A DNA stretch of 28,110 nucleotides from Dehalococcoidia bacterium (GTDB lineage: Bacteria; Chloroflexota; Dehalococcoidia; UBA2979), in assembly GCA_964291495.2 (NCBI GenBank), contig OZ219869.1, positions 1 through 28,110 of the forward strand, written 5' to 3'. Positions within the stretch are counted from its first letter, which is position 1, and each line of letters starts with the position of its first letter. The position numbers were made by a program, and so were the translations under genes. Under the pieces are notes generated by a model. It worked only from the letters and a program-made list of their open reading frames with translations. It was not told the origin of the DNA and did no database searches. Shown piece by piece: positions 9,145 through 16,290 of this stretch.

Positions 9145-9654
9145 ATGACCCGAATCCTGCTGGTCTACGACAGCCGCGCCGGCCTCGTGCAGCAGCTTGC
9201 CGACGCCGTCGGCGAGGGCGTGCGCGCCATCGAGGGCGCGGAGCTGCGCAGCCTGCGCATCGGGGAGGCCGATCCGCTGGAGCTGCTGCACTGCGACGCG
9301 TTGATCCTCGGTTCTCCGAACTGGACAGGCGTGACCGGCGAGCTGAAGGTCTGGCTCGACCAGTCCGGCGATCTCTGGGAGTCCGGCGAGTTGGCGGGCA
9401 AGCCGGGCGCCGCGTTCGCCGCCGGCTGGTCGCCGCACGGCGGGCTGGAGGCAACCCTGCAACAGCTCATGCACCTGCTGGTCGGGCACGGCATGATCTT
9501 CGTCGGCCTGCCCTGGAGCGAGCGCATGCGGCGATCCGGTTCCTACTACGGCGCGACGGCAGCGGGGACCGTCACCGACGAGGACCGCGAACAGGCGCGC
9601 GCCCTCGGGCGGCGCGTCGCCCGGCTGGCCGTCCGCCTCGAGGGCGCATCGTGA
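9145..9654 (+). CDS. WrbA-like flavodoxin-fold NAD(P)H:quinone oxidoreductase, 169 aa
   Basis: ILLVYDSRAG, DALILGSPNW, LAGKPGAAF, HGGLEATL, GMIFVG and ARALGRRVA. Confidence 0.88.
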   Translation: MTRILLVYDSRAGLVQQLADAVGEGVRAIEGAELRSLRIGEADPLELLHCDALILGSPNWTGVTGELKVWLDQSGDLWESGELAGKPGAAFAAGWSPHGGLEATLQQLMHLLVGHGMIFVGLPWSERMRRSGSYYGATAAGTVTDEDREQARALGRRVARLAVRLEGAS

Positions 9655-10445
9655 GCACGCACGACGGCGAGCCGGGCGAGGGCGGCGAGGCCATCGTGCC
9701 GCTGGCCGCGCGCGCCCGCGCGCTGCTGGAAGCGCCGCCCTGGAACGACCGCCCCTACGTGCTCACCCTGCTCGCCGTGGAGCCGCCCGAGGGCGCACCG
9801 GTGGGTCCGCAGCGCCTCTGGCTCGTCGTCGACGCGGCCGACGTGCGCGACCTGGACACGGAGTGGCGCGAGCCGCTGCTGCGCCATCGCCTGCGGCGCG
9901 CCGGCGACGAGTCGTTCGAGACGACCGTGGTCACGACGGACGGCATCGAGGCGCTGCTCGACGGCGTCTCGCGCCGATCGCTGGAGGTCCGCTGGGAGTT
10001 CCGCCACGCGGACCCGCTGCACGATCCCAGCGGGCGCGCGGAGCGCCTCGCGGCGGCCGCGCGGCGCCTGCCCGGCGAGGCGCTGGAGCGCCTTGCGCGC
10101 CCGCTCTACCTGCAGGCCGGTCGCGCGCTGGAGGCGCTGGCGCGCGCGCACGCGGCCTCGAGCGAGGCGAGCGAGGCGCTCGCCGGCGGCGAGGCGGCAA
10201 GCGCGCTCACGCGGCTGGCCTGCATCCTGGAGGAGGGCGCGCATCCGACGGCGGACTGGCTGGACGCCGCGGCGCGCCAGACCGGGCTGGGACGCCGCAT
10301 CGCGCCCTGGCTGGACACGCGCTCCCCGGCCACGAGCGACGCCGTCCTCGCCGAGGCCGCGGCGGCGCTGCGCGCCTACTTCGCGGATCGCGAGTGGCTG
10401 CGCGAGCCTGAGACCTACGCCTTGCGACCGCCGCCGCGACAGTAG
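9651..10445 (+). CDS. Hypothetical protein, 264 aa (possible degenerate nucleotidyltransferase-like fold with helical C-terminus)
   Basis: GTGA overlap with the upstream stop; host-like codon bias; PLHDPSG motif. Confidence 0.7.
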   Translation: MSTHDGEPGEGGEAIVPLAARARALLEAPPWNDRPYVLTLLAVEPPEGAPVGPQRLWLVVDAADVRDLDTEWREPLLRHRLRRAGDESFETTVVTTDGIEALLDGVSRRSLEVRWEFRHADPLHDPSGRAERLAAAARRLPGEALERLARPLYLQAGRALEALARAHAASSEASEALAGGEAASALTRLACILEEGAHPTADWLDAAARQTGLGRRIAPWLDTRSPATSDAVLAEAAAALRAYFADREWLREPETYALRPPPRQ

Positions 10446-10454
10446 CGGCGCGAG

Positions 10455-11990
10455 CTACTGCTCGCGATCGATGACGTAGTCTTCACGCACCCACGAGGCG
10501 ACGTCGTCCACCTGAGCCAACAACCAGCCCTCGCAGCGCCCGCTCCCGATCTCGATCACCTCGATGGCCTGGCCCTCCGGCCAGCCTTCGCCGGGGGCGG
10601 AGAAGCGGGCGGCGTCAGCGCAGTCGTCGCGGAGGGAGACGCCGTCGCCGTCGGTGTTCCCGATCGCCCGTTCGAGCGAGAGCGAGGGTGGCAGCGTAGC
10701 GGTCGGCGTCGCGGTCTCTGTGGGCGTCGGCGTAGGCGTGGGCGTCGCCGTGTCTGTGGGCGTCGCTGTCGGTGTACGGGTCGGCGGCGGCGTGGAAGTC
10801 GCCGTCGGCGAGGGCGTCGCCGCCGGGACGGGGGTGGCGGTGGCCTCCGGTGGCGCCGTGCCCGTGATGCCGTCCACGAAGTCGCCGACCGCCGCCGCCG
10901 CGGCGTCCGAGGCATCGAGCGCGCGATCGACCGGCCAGGTCCGCGTCCCAAGCAGGGCGAGCCCGACGAGGATCACGCCGACCGCGAACGCTCCGAGGAA
11001 GGCGACGACGATCCCGCAGGTGAAGTAGTCGGCGAGGGTGACCCTGCGGGACTCCTCCGGCGCTGCCTCGGGCTCCACCGCCTCCGGTTCTTCCGGCTCT
11101 TCCTCGGCGGCCGGGATCGGCTCCAGCAGCTCCTCGACGGCGTCCGCGACCGTGTCGAGGGCGTCGCGCAGCCACTCCGCAGCCTCTGCCACGTAGCCGT
11201 CCACGTACTCGCCGCTGGAGGGATGGGCCCAGCTGCGGCGCAGCCGGAGCACCGTGCGCAACAGCGAGCGCTCCGGTCCGCTGAGGTCGCAGTGCTCCAG
11301 CGCGATCGCCGTGAAGTCGGCGGGGCCGAGCAGGCCCACGAGCTCCTCGGCCGTCAGCAGCGCCGCAGCCTCGACGTGTCGTTCGACCGCCGCCCGCCGT
11401 TGCTCGCCGACGCGCCGCTCCCACCATTCTTCGGGCGACTCGCGCTCGGCCCAGGCGACGAAGACGCGGCGTATCCCGTCGCCGTGGCGCTTGATCTCCT
11501 CGCTGAGTTCCACGTAGGCGCTGCGCGGCGGATCGCCGCCCTCGCGCAGCGCGAGCAGCTCCGCAGCGGCCGGCAGCTGGTAGTAGGCCAGCGCCTCGTG
11601 CATCGCGCTGAGCGCCTGATCGACATCCTCCGTGGCGTAGTCGCCCTCGGGAGGATCGGACCAGCGCTCCTGCAGCTCCTGCACCTGGAGCATTAGCTCC
11701 GTCGTGCGGTCGTTGGCGCGGAAGCGCTCCCTGAAGATCGCGGCGAAGTGCCGCGCGTCGAGGAACTCGGTGCCGGCCTTCGGCAGCACGCCCTCGCGCG
11801 CCTCGTCGAGGTCGTCGTCGTGCAGCCTGCGTTCGCGGTCGAGGGCGGCGATCTGCTCGGCGGAGAGGCTTGTGAGGACGTACTCGTCCCACCAGTCCTC
11901 GCGCACGCGGCGGTCGATGTAGCGGCGCAGCGAGTCCGTGTAGCGCTTCAGCCCGTAGCTGAGCCGTGCGTAGTTGCTGGCCGGGCTCAC
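10455..11990 (-). CDS. Bitopic membrane protein: two tandem Swt1-like HEPN-type repeats, acidic linker, TM helix, Pro/Thr linker, C-terminal SH3b-like domain; 511 aa
   Basis: Internal duplication visible by eye; RRSWAH (R-X4-H) in repeat 2; TM segment YFTCGIVVAFLGAFAVGVILVGLALLG; GNTDGDGVSLR...WPEG...W...WVREDYV; GGGAG Shine-Dalgarno before the GTG. Confidence 0.8.
   Translation of the reverse strand: MSPASNYARLSYGLKRYTDSLRRYIDRRVREDWWDEYVLTSLSAEQIAALDRERRLHDDDLDEAREGVLPKAGTEFLDARHFAAIFRERFRANDRTTELMLQVQELQERWSDPPEGDYATEDVDQALSAMHEALAYYQLPAAAELLALREGGDPPRSAYVELSEEIKRHGDGIRRVFVAWAERESPEEWWERRVGEQRRAAVERHVEAAALLTAEELVGLLGPADFTAIALEHCDLSGPERSLLRTVLRLRRSWAHPSSGEYVDGYVAEAAEWLRDALDTVADAVEELLEPIPAAEEEPEEPEAVEPEAAPEESRRVTLADYFTCGIVVAFLGAFAVGVILVGLALLGTRTWPVDRALDASDAAAAAVGDFVDGITGTAPPEATATPVPAATPSPTATSTPPPTRTPTATPTDTATPTPTPTPTETATPTATLPPSLSLERAIGNTDGDGVSLRDDCADAARFSAPGEGWPEGQAIEVIEIGSGRCEGWLLAQVDDVASWVREDYVIDREQ
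10690..10865 (-). repeat. Low-complexity Pro/Thr (TPTAT/PTPT) linker-coding repeats
   Basis: Encodes TAPPEATATPVPAATPSPTATSTPPPTRTPTATPTDTATPTPTPTPTETATPTATLPP. Confidence 0.85.
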
Positions 11991-12014
11991 GCGCGGCTCC
12001 CGTCCATCATCGTG

Positions 12015-13181
12015 CTAGCCGTCGCCCCGCGCCTGCTCCAGCAGGCGGCGCGCGATCACCAGGCGCTGCACCTCGTTCGTCCCCTCGCCGACGATCAGCA
12101 GGGGCGCGTCGCGGAAGTAGCGCTCCACCGGCAGATCCTGCATGTAGCCGGCGCCGCCGTGGATGCGCAGGCCCTCAAGGGCGCACATCTGCGCCGCCTC
12201 CGTGGCGAACAGCTTGGCCTGACCGGCCTCGAGGTCCACGCGCTGCCCGGCGTCCTTCAGGCGCGCCGCGCGCTGCGTGAGCAGGCGGGCCGCCTCGATC
12301 GCCACGGACATGTCGGCGAGCTTGATCTGGATCGCCTGGTGCTCGGCGATCGGCACGCCGAAGGTGTGGCGCTCCTGCGCGTAGGCGAGGGCGTCCTCGT
12401 AGGCCGCGCGCGCCAGGCCGACCCCGCGCGCGGCGACGTTGAGGCGGCCCAGTTCGAGGCCCGCCATCACCTGCTGGAAGCCGCGTCCCGCGCCGCCGAC
12501 GAGGTTGCCGGCGGGCACGGCGCAGTCCTCGAAGAACAGCTCGGAGGTTTCGATGCCGCGGTAGCCGAGCTTCTCGAAGTCGCGCCCGACGCTAAAGCCC
12601 GGCGTGCCGCGCTCGACGACGAAGACCGCCATGCCGCGATGCGGCGGCTGCGCCGCCGGGTCCGTCCTGGCGAGGACGGCGACGTAGCGAGCGCGCCTGC
12701 CGTTGGTGATGAACTGCTTCTGGCCGTTCAGCACGTACACGTCGCCGTCGCGGCGCGCCGTCGTGGCGATCGCCTGCACGTCGCTGCCCGCGCCCGGCTC
12801 GGTGAGCGCGAGGGCGCCCTGCGCCTCGCCCGAGGCGAGGCCGGGCAGGAAGCGCGCTTGCTGCTCGTCGCTGCCGAAGCGCTCGATGATGTGGGCGAGG
12901 ATGAGGTGCGAGTTGAAGACCCCGGCCAGCGTCATCCAGCCGCGCGAGACCTCCTCGACGGCGGCGACGTAGGTCTCGTAGCTCAGACCCGCGCCGCCGT
13001 TGGCGGGGTCGAGGACCGCGCCGAACAGGCCGAGGTCGCGCAGGTCCTGCACCAATTCGGCGGGGTACTCGTCGCGCAGCTCGTACTCGCGCGCGACGGG
13101 CAGGACGCGGCGGCGCACCCAGTCCCGCAGGTTGGCGACCAGCAGCTCGCGCGCCTCGTCGCTCGCGGGCAGCGCGGTCAT
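12015..13181 (-). CDS. Acyl-CoA dehydrogenase (possibly methylsuccinyl-CoA dehydrogenase-like), 388 aa
   Basis: ALALTEPGAGSD, LNGQKQFITNG, KLGYRG, IHGGAGY and ERYFRDAPLLIVGEGTNEVQRLVIAR; ATGA overlap with the upstream gene. Confidence 0.95.
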   Translation of the reverse strand: MTALPASDEARELLVANLRDWVRRRVLPVAREYELRDEYPAELVQDLRDLGLFGAVLDPANGGAGLSYETYVAAVEEVSRGWMTLAGVFNSHLILAHIIERFGSDEQQARFLPGLASGEAQGALALTEPGAGSDVQAIATTARRDGDVYVLNGQKQFITNGRRARYVAVLARTDPAAQPPHRGMAVFVVERGTPGFSVGRDFEKLGYRGIETSELFFEDCAVPAGNLVGGAGRGFQQVMAGLELGRLNVAARGVGLARAAYEDALAYAQERHTFGVPIAEHQAIQIKLADMSVAIEAARLLTQRAARLKDAGQRVDLEAGQAKLFATEAAQMCALEGLRIHGGAGYMQDLPVERYFRDAPLLIVGEGTNEVQRLVIARRLLEQARGDG

Positions 13182-14413
13182 CGGGCGGGCGCCCTGTCGA
13201 GACCGGCGACGACACCCGCCTTGCGCAGCGCGGCGATCCGCTCCGCGTCGTAGCCGAGCACCGAGGCCAGGACGTCCTCGCTGTCCTCGCCCAGCGCCGA
13301 GGCGGCCCGGTAGTCCGGCTCGTCGCCGACGAAGCGGAACGGCGTGGCGATCTGCTGCAACGAACCGAAACGCTCGTGTTCGACCTCGATGATGTCGCCG
13401 CGCTCGCGCAGGAACTCGTCGGCGAGCGCCTCCGGGACCCCTCGAGGGACGGCGACGGGCACGATCCCGAGCAGCGCCTCCATCCACTTCGCCGTCGGTC
13501 GCTGCGCGAACACCTCGGACAGCAGCGCGACGAGCGTCTCGCGGTGCTCGAGGCGGCCTGCGGCGTTGGCGAAGCGCGGGTCGGCGGCGAGGTCCGGGCG
13601 CTCGATCGCCTCGCAGAGCGCGCCGTAGAACGACTCCTTGTTGCACATCACGAAGATGTGCCCGTCCGCCGTCGCGAAGACCTGCGAGGGCACCAGGCTG
13701 GGATGCGCCGAGCCCGGCAGACGCTCCGGCTGGTAGCCGCGCGTGAGATGCCAGGAGGCCACGTAGTTCAGCATCCCCAGCCCGATCTCGTAGAGCGAGA
13801 GGTCGATGTCCGCGCCTCGACCCGTGCGCTGCGCCTGCTGCACACCGGCCAGCAGCGCGAACGCCGCCGCGTAGCCCGCGGACCAATCGACGACCGAGAC
13901 GCCGGAGCGCGTCGGCGGGCCGCCCGGCTCGCCGGTGATCGCCATGTAGCCAAGCTCCGCCTGGATCAGGTAGTCGAAGGCCGGCTCGCTGGCGCGCGAC
14001 CCGCTCGCGCCGTAGCCGCTGAGCCAGCAGCAGACGATGCGCGGGTTGCGATGGCGCAGGTGCTCGTACGTCAGGCCGAGCCGCGCCGGGCCGTCGCCCC
14101 GCAGGTTGCAGAACAGCGCGTCCGAAACCTCGACGAGGTCGCCAAGGACGGCGGCGCCCTCGGGCGAGCGGAGGTCGAGCGCGAGGCTGCGCTTGCCGCG
14201 GTTGAGCGCCTGGAAGAAGAGGCTGTCCTGCTCCTCGGCGTAGGGGGGCACGTAGCGGCCCATGTCACCGCCCGCCGCCGGATCCTCGATCTTGATCACG
14301 TCCGCGCCGAGGTCGGCGAGGTGCAGCGTCGCGAACGGGCCGGCCCCGTACTGGTCGACCGCGATCACGCGCAGCCCCTCGAGCGGCCGCGGCGGCGTTC
14401 CCTCGGCGCTCAC
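13178..14413 (-). CDS. Family III CoA-transferase (CaiB/BaiF)
   Basis: PLEGLRVI, AGPFATLHLADLGADVIKIE, LNRGKRSLALDL, SGYG and catalytic-Asp region SVVDWSAG; GTGA overlap with the MaoC stop. Confidence 0.95.
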   Translation of the reverse strand: MSAEGTPPRPLEGLRVIAVDQYGAGPFATLHLADLGADVIKIEDPAAGGDMGRYVPPYAEEQDSLFFQALNRGKRSLALDLRSPEGAAVLGDLVEVSDALFCNLRGDGPARLGLTYEHLRHRNPRIVCCWLSGYGASGSRASEPAFDYLIQAELGYMAITGEPGGPPTRSGVSVVDWSAGYAAAFALLAGVQQAQRTGRGADIDLSLYEIGLGMLNYVASWHLTRGYQPERLPGSAHPSLVPSQVFATADGHIFVMCNKESFYGALCEAIERPDLAADPRFANAAGRLEHRETLVALLSEVFAQRPTAKWMEALLGIVPVAVPRGVPEALADEFLRERGDIIEVEHERFGSLQQIATPFRFVGDEPDYRAASALGEDSEDVLASVLGYDAERIAALRKAGVVAGLDRAPAR

Positions 14414-14934
14414 GCCGCGCCACCGTCCGCCGGGCGGCACGGCAGCAGTACCGAGCGCCGGAACGACAGCACCGGCTCGCCGCGCTGGTTCTCGGCGATT
14501 GTCTCCACCTCGAGGACGCCGCGGTCGGGGCGGCGTTCGCTGGACCGCACGTCCAGCACGGTCGAGCGCGCGTAGATCGTGTCGCCGTGGAAGGTGGGGC
14601 CGAGGTGGCGCACCGCGTCGTACCGGAGGTTGGCGATCGCTCGCCCGGAGATGTCGCGCACGGTCATGCCGACGACGAGGCTGAAGACGAGCGTCCCGAC
14701 CACGAGGCGCTGCCCGTGCTGCGTGCCCTCGGCGTAGGCCGCGTCGCTGTGCACCGGGTGCTGGTTCATCGTCAGCGCGGCGAAGAGTGTGTCGTCGTAC
14801 TCGGTGATGGTGCGGCCCGGCCAGTGGACGAACTCGTCGCCCGGCACGAAGTCGTCGAGGTAGCGTCCGAAGGTCTCGCGACCGTCGTGCCGCCGGGGAT
14901 CGCGCGCCTCCGGCGGTGTGGCTGTGTCGCCCAT
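14410..14934 (-). CDS. MaoC-family (R)-specific enoyl-CoA hydratase/dehydratase
   Basis: GRYLDDF, HWPGRTITEYD, TMNQHPVHSD, PTFHGDTIYA and NQRGEPV. Confidence 0.93.
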   Translation of the reverse strand: MGDTATPPEARDPRRHDGRETFGRYLDDFVPGDEFVHWPGRTITEYDDTLFAALTMNQHPVHSDAAYAEGTQHGQRLVVGTLVFSLVVGMTVRDISGRAIANLRYDAVRHLGPTFHGDTIYARSTVLDVRSSERRPDRGVLEVETIAENQRGEPVLSFRRSVLLPCRPADGGAA

Positions 14935-15030
14935 CGTGCTCCCGTCACCCGTGAGCCGCGCGAGTCCGCCGCGCGAACGGCCCCTGTGAGGATAACGCGG
15001 TCCGGGCGGCTGGGGTTCCTGAGCCCTCGA

Positions 15031-16290
15031 TCAGCCCGACGCGGCGAGCGCCCGCGCGGGCGGGCGCTCGCCGAAGAGATCGAGCGCCAGGCGCTCGCGC
15101 AGCGCATCGACGCCCCAGCCATGCAACGCCGAGACGACCAGCGTCCCAATGTGCGGCAGGTCCGGGTGCGCCAGCGCCGACTCGTGCGCGGGATTCTCGC
15201 CGTCGAGGCGCGCGAGGTCGGACTCCGCGGCCGGCGGCGAGCCGTCCGGCAGCTCCAGCTCGTCGGCCTTGTTGAGCACGGTGAGCACCGGCCGGCCGGT
15301 CAGCTCGAGGTCGGCGAGCGTCTCCAGCACCGTCTCGCCCTGCGCCGCCGCCGCCGGTGAGCTCGCGTCGACGACGTGCAGCAGCATGTCGGCCGACTCG
15401 AGCTCCTCGAGCGTGGCGCGGAAGGCGGAGATCAGCTGCGTCGGCAGCTTCTGGATGAAGCCGACGGTGTCGGTCAGCAGGAAGGCGTGGCCGCCCGGCG
15501 CGCCGACGCGGCGGGTCAGCGGGTCGAGCGTCGCAAAGGGCGCGTCGGCGGTGAACGCTTCGCTGCCCGCGAGTGCCTGGAGCAGCGATGACTTGCCGGC
15601 GTTGGTGTAGCCGACGAGGGCCACCACCGGGATGCCGTCGCGCTCGCGGCGGCGGCGGTGCAGTGCGCGCTGCTTGCGCACGCTCTCGATCGAGCGCTTG
15701 AGGTGGCTGATGCGAGCGCCGACCAGGCGGCGGTCGGTCTCCAGCTGCGTCTCGCCCGGTCCGCGCGCGCCGATCGCGCCCTCGGTGCGTTCGAGGTGCC
15801 GCCACTGCCCGCGCAGGCGCGGCAGCAGGTACTCGTGCTGCGCCAGCTCCACCTGCAGCGCCGCTTCCCGGGTGCGGGCGCGGCTGGCGAAGATGTCGAG
15901 GATCAGCGCGCTGCGGTCCAGCACCTTCACGGCGAGCGCGGATTCGAGCCTTAGCTGCTGCGCGGGCGAGAGCTGCTCGTCGAAGATCACGAGCGTGTAG
16001 CCGGTGGTCTCCCGCGCGGCCTGGATCTCCTCGAGCTTGCCCGCGCCGATCCAGGTCGCCGGGTCGGGCCGAGGCCGCCGCTGCAACGCCTGCCCGACGA
16101 CGGTCGCGCCCGCGGTGCGGGCGAGCCGCGCCAGCTCGCGCAGCGACTCGCGAGGCGGCATGAGCGGCTTGCGCTGGTAGTCGAGGCCCACGAGGAAGGC
16201 GCGCTCCTGCACGGGGGCGGTCGCGTGCCCGCGCCCGTTCGCTGCTCCGCTGCCGCCGTTACGGCCGTTGCGAGTGCGCTTCCTCGGGAT
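15031..16290 (-). CDS. hflX: Ribosome-splitting GTPase HflX; start proposed at non-canonical ATC 16290 (first canonical in-frame start is GTG 16212)
   Basis: ILDIFASRART, GPGETQLETDRR, G1 GYTNAGKS, FATLDP, G3 DTVGF and G4 NKAD; GGAGGAGG just upstream of an in-frame ATC. Confidence 0.96.
   Translation of the reverse strand: MPRKRTRNGRNGGSGAANGRGHATAPVQERAFLVGLDYQRKPLMPPRESLRELARLARTAGATVVGQALQRRPRPDPATWIGAGKLEEIQAARETTGYTLVIFDEQLSPAQQLRLESALAVKVLDRSALILDIFASRARTREAALQVELAQHEYLLPRLRGQWRHLERTEGAIGARGPGETQLETDRRLVGARISHLKRSIESVRKQRALHRRRRERDGIPVVALVGYTNAGKSSLLQALAGSEAFTADAPFATLDPLTRRVGAPGGHAFLLTDTVGFIQKLPTQLISAFRATLEELESADMLLHVVDASSPAAAAQGETVLETLADLELTGRPVLTVLNKADELELPDGSPPAAESDLARLDGENPAHESALAHPDLPHIGTLVVSALHGWGVDALRERLALDLFGERPPARALAASG

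Follow-up and report, generated by a model that had tools for sequence, protein, structure and literature searches.

A membrane-anchored tandem Swt1-like HEPN protein with a C-terminal SH3b domain in one uncultured genus of Chloroflexota

Introduction

Ire1 is a sensor that works across a membrane, with a single transmembrane (TM) segment and an output domain of the HEPN superfamily that needs dimerisation. For bacteria, stimulus-dependent RNA degradation by membrane HEPN proteins was predicted in 2013 (PMC3710099), and section 15 of that survey describes three groups of TM-linked HEPN proteins for which an Ire1-like mode of stimulus-dependent RNA degradation is proposed, all of this as predictions. 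The architectures outlined there are a TM segment with a WP signature joined to a DUF4145 HEPN domain, a helical-TM-HEPN arrangement and an HEPN-2TM-Zn ribbon arrangement, and one of the groups is placed in the same section within the Abi2/Swt1 family. Membrane-linked HEPN proteins also occur in the PICI HEPN-TM defence system, according to PMC12948488, and in Csx28 of type VI-B CRISPR, described in a preprint abstract as a pore. HEPN domains of the DUF499 type have as fusion partners an AAA+ ATPase, HSDR_N or DUF4268, and are reported to lie in methylase/helicase defence operons (PMC3710099 and PMC12839542). Eukaryotic Swt1 is listed as an inactive HEPN dyad and has been proposed to bind RNA without catalysis (PMC3710099, Table 1 and section 9). 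The searched literature contained no experiment that tests a membrane HEPN protein of the receptor type.

The present work concerns a gene located at 10,455–11,990 on the minus strand of a window of 28,110 nucleotides (the whole stretch of DNA that was analysed) from a Dehalococcoidia bacterium. Its product is a lineage-specific single-pass membrane protein composed of an HEPN dyad, a conserved TM and juxtamembrane part, a Pro/Thr-rich (PT) stalk and a copy of an SH3b domain. Like the membrane HEPN proteins of PMC3710099, it combines HEPN and TM in one chain, here with one TM segment (aa 319–348); its order is HEPN-HEPN-TM-PT-SH3b, whereas HEPN dyad, PT stalk and SH3b ectodomain are all lacking from the three architectures of that survey, and the protein gave no Pfam match to DUF4145. 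Elsewhere among 1.84 billion representative proteins this exact architecture did not turn up, and the combination of HEPN dyad, TM and SH3b was not described in the literature searched, the supplementary lists of PMC3710099 and PMC12839542 being places that might contain one. The original prediction did not recognise the architecture from described systems, which overstates its novelty, since membrane HEPN proteins with an Ire1-like hypothesis had already been described in 2013 (PMC3710099); among the bacterial membrane sensors of this predicted class, HEPN-HEPN-TM-PT-SH3b is an unusual form.

The closest sequence relatives are the N-terminal HEPN endoRNase modules of DUF499 defence ATPases (Ava_2192 type; HmaC, Hma / Type-1 BREX-related) and of other fusions of the restriction type, which belong to the same PF18731 family and share the signature ...WW...HF...RNxWAHPxSGD. 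Their HEPN domain is single, with an intact R-N-x3-H, in a soluble protein, whereas the protein described here has a membrane-anchored dyad and no ATPase; with respect to the criteria for Hma / Type-1 BREX-related systems, no DUF499 was found in the protein and no methylase or helicase among the ten neighbouring genes. Eukaryotic Swt1 is similar in its HEPN family, its tandem dyad and the loss of the conserved motif, but differs in being associated with the nuclear pore and fused to PIN and in having neither TM nor SH3b; moreover, here one repeat keeps R-x4-H. The likeness to Ire1 and RNase L is a works-like analogy only (PMC3710099, section 9): the protein is without kinase, pseudokinase or KEN domains (Pfam, none at E≤10), belongs to a different HEPN family and carries one motif-bearing domain per chain. 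Neither PICI HEPN-TM nor Csx28, both compared by description, is described with an HEPN dyad or an SH3b ectodomain in the literature searched.

Results

The gene consists of 511 codons and a stop codon, and starts with GTG; its orthologues begin at the same residue. A Shine-Dalgarno-like GGGAG was read from the sequence 6 nt before the GTG (11,997–12,001, minus strand), and the stop codon of the preceding ACAD gene (12,015–12,017) lies 24 nt upstream of the gene start. Its GC3 (0.91) is similar to that of the neighbouring genes. All the sequence features described for this gene in the original prediction were recovered at the same positions. The gene closes a compact block of genes on one strand (MaoC / CoA-transferase / ACAD / gene), with overlaps between genes, and no sigma-70-like promoter or terminator-like site was found in 10,200–15,200. 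The overlaps, the 24-nt gap and the lack of a promoter-like site fit co-transcription with the MaoC/CoA-transferase/ACAD block, and the spacing suggests an operon. The block behaves as a unit, either complete or missing altogether (10/10 loci with it, 4/4 loci without it).

The neighbours code for CoxSML, an FMN reductase, an acyl-CoA dehydrogenase, a CoA-transferase, MaoC, HflX and a dCTP deaminase, and the ten neighbouring genes that were scanned are metabolic or housekeeping ones. No defence context was found: the gene is the last of a probable operon for acyl-CoA metabolism and does not lie in a defence island, and comparison of the protein with the PADLOC-DB 2.0 models gave PD-T4-6 as the sole match (E=0.0055), at aa 376–430, which is the low-complexity PT linker. 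Synteny was stable in 10/10 loci, and no signs of mobile elements were seen.

The gene is restricted to one sub-clade of one uncultured Chloroflexota genus, where it was found in 11/19 genomes, and it was detected in 0/22 genomes outside the genus. Full-length open frames are retained in nine species, and in one further species (G009) the gene is broken. This broken copy, together with the absence of the gene from 8/19 genomes of the genus, indicates that its role is dispensable. Whole-gene omega values were 0.21–0.34 in nine pairs versus 0.08–0.15 for the adjacent ACAD gene, and the gene is the fastest-evolving of its block (63–86% versus 88–98% identity). Purifying selection acts on every structured part, omega being 0.06–0.25 in the SH3b and TM parts, and dozens of residues are invariant across the gene family. 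These results confirmed that the gene is real and under purifying selection. Sponge, coral-reef and marine metagenome runs gave small word shares (0.07–0.14), which provide no evidence of habitat or expression, and no RNA run was among the sequencing runs listed as carrying the sequence.

The N-terminal half contains two Swt1-like HEPN repeats: repeat 1 (aa 1–152; 11,535–11,990, minus strand), assigned by hhalign and phmmer and devoid of a live motif, and repeat 2 (aa 153–290; 11,121–11,534, minus strand), assigned by hhalign and Pfam and more diverged. The internal repeat noted in the original prediction was borne out by BLASTP of aa 1–152 against aa 153–300 (136 columns aligned at 26% identity, E=5e-11), by a Smith-Waterman score of 106 versus 33.2±5.9 for shuffled sequences (z=12.3; 0/500 shuffles as high) and by a profile-profile comparison of both repeats (E=1.4e-11). 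The pair may have originated either by internal duplication or by fusion of two paralogues. A tree of 35 rows put both repeats on the same side of a branch that separates them from the canonical domains, but with a support of only 57/42 and a long-branch warning.

The assignment of both repeats to the Swt1-like HEPN family likewise held. Using hhalign against 19 canonical Swt1-HEPN proteins, repeat 1 was matched with a probability of 99.5% (E=2.4e-23, 41% identity) and repeat 2 with one of 97.3% (E=2e-11, 31% identity), and phmmer matches with 30–40% identity and E values down to 4.7e-14 covered aa 4–150 of repeat 1. Against PF18731, this protein alone scored 14.5 bits (E=0.043), below the cut-off. 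Eleven of 18 family members matched that model (Pfam HEPN_Swt1) at E≤1; the best match, that of the orthologue P0007 (E=2.7e-6), reached 28.1 bits with a cut-off of 27.5 and consisted of two stretches spanning both repeats (best stretch 166–275). Among the distant relatives scanned, 7/8 were above the PF18731 cut-off and fused to DUF499, HSDR_N or DUF4268. The isolated pieces of this protein (repeat 1, repeat 2 and C-terminal piece) gave no Pfam HEPN or SH3 match, and a PF18731 search of its own genome gave no match but is uninformative, the control genomes being silent too. NCBIfam searches of the protein returned only low-complexity matches to the Pro/Thr linker; most of the 71 homologue-search matches beyond P0021 were also of this spurious, low-complexity kind. 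A search of PDB sequences with the canonical HEPN profile gave a best E of 0.32, to unrelated capsid and MenH chains.

The RRSWAH of repeat 2 (aa 251–256; 11,223–11,240, minus strand) aligns with the canonical ARNxWAH, and its counterpart in repeat 1 is the remnant QERWSD (aa 107–112; 11,655–11,672, minus strand), both positions being defined by alignment of relatives. Canonical relatives have Arg in 18/19, Asn in 16/19 and His in 18/19 sequences at this motif. In repeat 1, the Arg position is occupied by Q, H or Y and the His position by D, G or R (R in 0/17 and H in 0/17 relatives), in agreement with the proposal that this repeat lacks Rx4H. Repeat 2 was likewise found to keep R-x4-H with the Asn replaced, as had been proposed: R251 is present in 18/18 relatives and H256 in 14/18, and the Asn position contains no Asn in any of 18 (R in 17, H in one). 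The original prediction had also named in advance the conservation of this Arg and His in homologues as a test that could refute it; the Arg part stood and the His part did not, because His was lost at least three times independently. These three changes (to Tyr, Tyr and Arg) were placed on a tree of 16 rows, from which the frameshifted P0018 and the truncated P0019 were left out. The His-less orthologues have intact genes, with repeat-2 omega values of 0.15 (L017–L018) and 0.32 (L019–L016). R251, R249, W254 and P257 are invariant in repeat 2, whose motif helix is Arg-rich (R245, R249, R251 and R252 invariant or nearly so). A family-invariant His of helix 3 is kept as H81 in repeat 1, but is replaced by Asp225 in repeat 2. 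With Asn changed to Arg and His replaced three times, the predicted catalytic site of repeat 2 is decaying; since R251 and H256 are both kept in the window's protein and in 14/18 relatives, catalysis may be possible in this species.

The repeats are followed by an acidic, poorly conserved linker (aa 291–318; 11,037–11,120, minus strand; 10 D+E of 28 residues), with a mean pairwise identity of 0.50 and omega values up to 1.8, and by a single TM helix (aa 319–348; 10,947–11,036, minus strand). Both the single TM helix and the lack of an N-terminal signal peptide claimed originally were confirmed: Kyte-Doolittle windows of 19 aa above 1.6 begin only at aa 317–336 (maximum 2.79), the next best value elsewhere being 1.20 and the N-terminal peak 0.14. 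The helix has many invariant residues (D321, Y322, T324, C325, F331, A334, L341, V342, L344, A345 and G348). A conserved juxtamembrane segment (aa 349–378; 10,857–10,946, minus strand), predicted to be helical with low-confidence secondary structure, opens with the invariant R350, T351, W352, P353 and V354. W352-P353, which is invariant, is reminiscent of the TM with a ‘WP signature’ described for a different group of membrane HEPN proteins. TM and juxtamembrane parts together gave omega values of 0.11–0.25 in most pairs, and a search of proteins of 281–895 aa for aa 312–382 joined to other heads gave 16/16 matches within the family. The Pro/Thr linker comes next (aa 379–437; 10,680–10,856, minus strand), and its composition was as expected (66% P+T). 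Since there is no signal peptide and a single TM helix, and both the PT linker and the two Cys lie C-terminal to that helix, the topology would most naturally be N-in/C-out; the charge around the TM is uninformative in this respect (2 K+R on each side).

The C-terminal 70 or so residues with two Cys, also part of the original prediction, form a divergent SH3b domain (aa 438–511; 10,458–10,679, minus strand; C457 and C486) that was assigned by AF2, Foldseek and Pfam searches of its copies. The Cys pair is invariant in 25/25 copies. The SH3b fold that had been proposed was supported by an AF2 model with pLDDT 92.3 and pTM 0.78, for which the best PDB matches are SH3b domains. By Foldseek, the best match was 4krt (TM score 0.73, RMSD 2.4 Å), followed by 2krs (0.69), and YrvJ (9a7d) was also recovered; every PDB match listed is an SH3 domain, with a best E of 8e-3 and none at E≤0.001. 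The resemblance to the cell-wall-binding SH3b domains of the phiSM101 endolysin (4krt) and C. perfringens CPF_0587 (2krs) is structural (TM scores 0.69–0.74, RMSD 2.1–2.4 Å), but identity is 9–18% and the Cys pair is specific to this lineage. Among the paralogous copies, SH3_3 was matched by 8/25 (best E=9e-5), SH3_4 by 3/25 and SH3b_T by 1/25, and the copy in this protein gave no Pfam match; protein-atlas neighbours of the domain are SH3_3 clusters (0.96), and a search of PDB sequences with the SH3b profile gave no matches at E≤10. SH3b-type domains are amplified in the genus, where they are mostly used in giant surface proteins; the module also occurs with other heads, as proteins of the P0020 type have a Cys-rich head, a TM, a PT region and 3 x SH3b, with SH3b parts that are 47–61% identical. 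Solved SH3b domains bind envelope or surface ligands, and by analogy the one described here probably does so too.

The full-length AF2 model (17 sequences; mean pLDDT 43.1) is all-helical at aa 6–288 and unusable for a fold search or for the packing of the repeats. Predicted complexes of repeat 1 with repeat 2 had scores of 0.71–0.74, but one control had 0.57, and these scores count neither for nor against packing.

Discussion

The explanation that we prefer, and to which we give slightly less than an even chance, is that the protein attaches to the surface as a receptor or anchor and binds RNA through its HEPN pseudo-dimer, with an RNase activity that is at best residual or conditional. According to it, the SH3b domain would hold a surface-bound or ligand-bound state outside the cell, and the HEPN repeats would pack as an intramolecular pseudo-dimer with at most half of a composite active site. 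The bound state would be tied to the binding of RNA, or of another phosphate-bearing ligand, by the Arg-rich HEPN groove on the cytoplasmic side of the membrane, and the action would be mainly non-catalytic, as in eukaryotic Swt1 with its inactive dyad. In the species that keep His256, this one included, a weak endoRNase activity dependent on clustering might persist. The pseudo-dimer and the RNA groove are what we infer, the full-length model having a mean pLDDT of 43; the invariance of R251, R249, W254 and P257 would also fit a working active site.

Such a working site is the core of the original prediction, an Ire1-like receptor RNase in which the dead repeat 1 autoinhibits repeat 2 until an SH3b ligand clusters the receptors and a composite Rx4H cleaves RNA in envelope stress or abortive infection. 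We regard it as possible though doubtful. R251 and H256, both present in the window's protein, are kept in most relatives, and the nearest relatives outside the family are predicted active defence RNases (PMC12839542); the TM and juxtamembrane parts show the unusual degree of conservation that an element for signal transmission should have, and the same idea has been proposed for other membrane HEPN proteins (PMC3710099, section 15). However, orthologues that are intact and constrained have lost the His at least three times, the Asn is lost in 18/18, and Asp225 of repeat 2 stands where repeat 1 has H81. Neither defence neighbours nor PADLOC matches outside the linker were found, and the locus is syntenic in 10/10 cases with no mobile-element signs.

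A more far-reaching form of the same idea is unlikely in our judgement: a bacterial counterpart of Ire1 in which the external SH3b domain would sense an envelope or phage ligand and the conserved TM/juxtamembrane helix would pass on the clustering, so that two repeat-2 half-sites, each normally masked by its own repeat 1, would form one RNase site for membrane-proximal RNA. In a sharper version, the repeats have sub-functionalised to form one asymmetric site, repeat 1 keeping His81 and repeat 2, with Asp225 at that position, keeping Rx4H.

Quite improbable, in turn, is a purely structural or tethering protein, anchored by its SH3b domain, in which the degenerate HEPN dyad would be a protein-protein scaffold, perhaps for the acyl-CoA enzymes or another partner, with no nucleic-acid role at all. 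It would fit the tight same-strand block with its overlaps, 24-nt gap and lack of a promoter-like site, the presence or absence of that block as a whole, the main use of the SH3b module in giant surface proteins of the genus and the decaying catalytic motif; operon membership is, however, read from spacing, and R245, R249, R251 and R252 are retained, as would be more usual in a domain that binds phosphate or RNA than in one that serves only as a scaffold. Finally, a decaying, functionless defence-gene relic that became joined to a surface module by accident, as the patchy distribution, the broken copy in G009 and the fast evolution within the block could suggest, is highly improbable because purifying selection was measured, both overall and in the SH3b and TM parts, in a gene with full-length frames in nine species and dozens of invariant residues.

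The immediate importance of the protein is limited, as it is confined to an uncultured genus and its catalytic His is unstable. It represents a compact natural case, with the SH3b domain predicted outside and the dyad inside, one repeat dead and the other half-decayed. If active on clustering, it would provide a simple model of transmembrane RNase control; if inactive, it would be a defence RNase module domesticated to a non-catalytic membrane protein, in parallel to eukaryotic Swt1.

Gene structure and HEPN repeats

The target gene (10455-11990, minus strand) comprises 511 codons and begins with GTG; GGGAG is found 6 nt upstream of this start, and the gene before it, encoding an acyl-CoA dehydrogenase (ACAD), has its stop 24 nt upstream. 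Its GC3 (0.91) is the same as that of the surrounding real genes in a window of ~72% G+C. The original prediction had described an internally duplicated N-terminal part, one transmembrane helix without an N-terminal signal peptide, a Pro/Thr linker and a two-Cys C-terminal domain, and this description was right in each detail checked. Comparison of aa 1-152 with aa 153-300 established the duplication as real (BLASTP E=5e-11; Smith-Waterman score 106, shuffles 33.2+/-5.9, z=12.3, as high in 0/500 shuffles). A single hydrophobic segment was found (aa ~319-348), with no hydrophobic stretch at the N-terminus; the linker comprises 59 residues (Pro+Thr 66%) and the C-terminal domain 74 residues with two Cys. 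The protein would thus lie with its N-terminus inside and its C-terminus outside. An invariant Trp-Pro (aa 352-353; 10932-10937) is located at the outer end of the transmembrane helix and resembles, by description only, the "WP signature" helix of a different membrane HEPN group and of receiver-domain proteins (PMC3710099, section 15).

Pfam analysis of the target alone gave a sub-threshold HEPN_Swt1 match in repeat 1 (E=0.043). Across the family, PF18731 was matched at E<=1 by 11 of 18 members, the best stretch being repeat 1 in some and repeat 2 in others, and one member (P0007), matched in two stretches, exceeded the curated cut-off (28.1 vs 27.5 bits). When 1.84 billion representative proteins were searched exhaustively with aa 1-300 by phmmer, there were 22 matches, among them two from the target family and 19 whose N-terminal domain shares 30-40% identity with repeat 1, hereafter canonical members. 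The PKD protein P0091, also matched, is unrelated. In seven of the eight distant matches scanned, PF18731 scored above cut-off and was joined to DUF499, HSDR_N or DUF4268. In profile-profile comparisons with the 19 canonical members, repeat 1 scored 99.5% (E=2.4e-23) and repeat 2 97.3% (E=2e-11). These results, together with P0007, supported the assignment of both repeats as Swt1-like HEPN domains and, judged by sequence, the target is a member of this family. Three genomes of the window's genus also have open frames that begin with one canonical Swt1-like HEPN domain sharing 32-36% identity with repeat 1 (G018:C2:1946519-1946956, open frame of 1167 aa; G015:C1:571581-572018, 591 aa; G011:C1:2478194-2478697, 554 aa). 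The dyad may have arisen within the lineage from such domains.

Catalytic motif and selection

The canonical A-R-N-x-W-A-H-P aligns with L-R-R-S-W-A-H-P in repeat 2 and L-Q-E-R-W-S-D-P in repeat 1. Canonical members keep Arg in 18/19, Asn in 16/19 and His in 18/19 cases. Repeat 1 has lost R-X4-H (Arg 0/17, His 0/17), as had been noticed, and the window's repeat 2 retains it as RRSWAH (11223-11240) with the Asn after the Arg replaced. Within the family, R251 of repeat 2 is present in 18/18 and position 252 is Arg in 17/18 and Asn in 0/18. Conservation of the motif in homologues therefore held for the Arg but not reliably for the His: H256 is found in 14/18 (Tyr in two, Arg in two), its replacements requiring three changes on a 16-row tree built without P0018, which is frameshifted, and P0019, which is truncated. 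Since repeat-2 omega stayed at 0.15 and 0.32 in pairs with a His-less orthologue, what selection maintains does not depend on a general-acid/base His in at least one fifth of family members. A further His, that of the ...HF... helix, never varies among canonical members or in repeat 1 (H81, ~11748-11750), and repeat 2 has an invariant Asp in its place (Asp225, ~11316-11318), so that each repeat keeps what the other lost. This complementary decay may point to a single asymmetric composite site or may have come about by chance.

Within its four-gene block the target evolves fastest (63-86% identity vs 88-98%), with omega 0.21-0.34 in nine pairs (ACAD, 0.08-0.15). By parts, omega was 0.14-0.40 for repeat 1, 0.15-0.38 for repeat 2, 0.06-0.20 for the SH3b domain and mostly 0.11-0.25 for the transmembrane and juxtamembrane region, where one close pair with almost no synonymous change gave 1.62. 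The target is clearly under constraint.

Distribution and gene neighbourhood

A search of 41 genomes found intact copies of full length in nine genomes of the window's genus, its own included; the remaining eight genomes of the genus yielded no target, and among the matches listed none outside the genus covered the HEPN part. The G002 copy ends at a contig edge, and the G009 orthologue (G009:C1:89509-91031, locus L022) is broken into two overlapping pieces in different frames with one in-frame TGA, P0019 being its 289-aa C-terminal remnant. Named relatives are from MAGs labelled Chloroflexi or Dehalococcoidia bacterium.

Synteny was identical at 10/10 loci: dCTP deaminase, HflX, MaoC hydratase, CoA-transferase, ACAD and target, then a convergent 264-aa ORF, an FMN reductase and CoxMSL. 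At 4/4 loci from target-less genomes of the genus (L028-L031), HflX adjoins the 264-aa ORF. The MaoC hydratase, family III CoA-transferase and ACAD genes (12015-14934, minus strand) are thus present or absent as a unit with the target, indicating an insertion or deletion specific to one clade. A scan of 10200-15200 revealed neither a sigma-70-like promoter nor an intrinsic-terminator-like site, and the target is plausibly co-transcribed with the acyl-CoA genes. The 264-aa ORF (9651-10445, plus strand) has no Pfam match; its start overlaps the FMN-reductase stop and its stop codon lies 9 nt from that of the target, so the 3' ends of both transcripts probably overlap. It is also present in genomes without the target and is fast-evolving (omega 0.22-0.52). 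The neighbourhood of the target contained no defence-related genes and PADLOC returned only a linker artefact for the target, so the context lends no support to the phage-defence role proposed originally.

The C-terminal SH3b module

Pfam gave no match for the target's own C-terminal copy. Of 25 aligned copies from the window's genus and two neighbouring genera, eight matched SH3_3 (best E=9e-5) and three SH3_4. The AF2 model from this alignment (pLDDT 92.3) matched only SH3 folds in the PDB by Foldseek, at modest E-values (best 8e-3), with bacterial and phage SH3b domains leading: endolysin 4krt (TM 0.73, RMSD 2.4 A), a YrvJ model (TM 0.70) and 2krs (TM 0.69). Atlas neighbours were SH3_3 clusters (0.96). 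The anticipated SH3b fold was thereby recovered. Ten columns, both Cys included, are invariant in 25/25 copies; the Cys pair probably forms a disulfide, which would place the domain outside the cytoplasm, where it may bind a ligand.

This ~70-aa two-Cys module is strongly amplified in the window's genus (G000:C6:777173-778078, G001:C3:953511-954077, G015:C1:105588-106763, G011:C1:986837-990477), including tandem copies within open frames of 1500-3600 aa, and is also found in the database proteins P0020, P0021 and P0094-P0102. Proteins of the P0020 type are ~400 aa long and single-pass; their cytoplasmic head is Cys-rich (zinc-ribbon-like), and they have a transmembrane helix, a Pro/Thr linker and three SH3b copies. 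The amplified module looks like a lineage-specific surface-module toolkit.

Discussion

In HEPN RNases, two Rx4-6H motifs come together at a dimer interface to form the active site (PMC3710099). The target chain, whose two repeats may pack as a pseudo-dimer, has one such motif and hence could supply no more than half of a site, unless a second chain joins it via repeat 2. The reading that we favour, at somewhat below even odds, is that a surface-binding SH3b ectodomain would be coupled to a mainly non-catalytic HEPN output binding RNA or a phosphate ligand. The repeated loss of the catalytic His, the missing Asn, the non-defence gene context and the precedent of eukaryotic Swt1, whose HEPN dyad is listed as inactive in Table 1 of PMC3710099, favour this mainly non-catalytic output and count against the clustering-activated transmembrane sensor RNase of the original prediction, which ranks second as a doubtful possibility. 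A pure scaffold or tether is quite unlikely, and it is very improbable that a gene so constrained is a decaying relic.

By architecture, the target falls into a loosely defined class of membrane-associated HEPN proteins of bacteria, for which Ire1-like RNA degradation at the membrane was proposed in PMC3710099 (section 15), but it fits none of the three architectures given there. The combination of HEPN dyad, transmembrane helix and SH3b was not found outside the window's genus by phmmer (1.84 billion representatives) or segment searches. The original remark that this architecture was not recognised from described systems overstated its novelty, as the membrane HEPN, Ire1-like idea is already in PMC3710099. 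The nearest canonical relatives are the HEPN domains that head the DUF499 ATPases in Hma/"Type-1 BREX-related" systems (PMC12839542). The PICI "HEPN-TM" system (PMC12948488) and Csx28 are described as membrane-linked HEPN defence proteins. The target is a real gene and a variant within a class so far without experimental exploration, for which the bold reading would be a bacterial Ire1 analogue, an unlikely one given that the catalytic His is unstable and that the gene lies in a metabolic, non-mobile setting.
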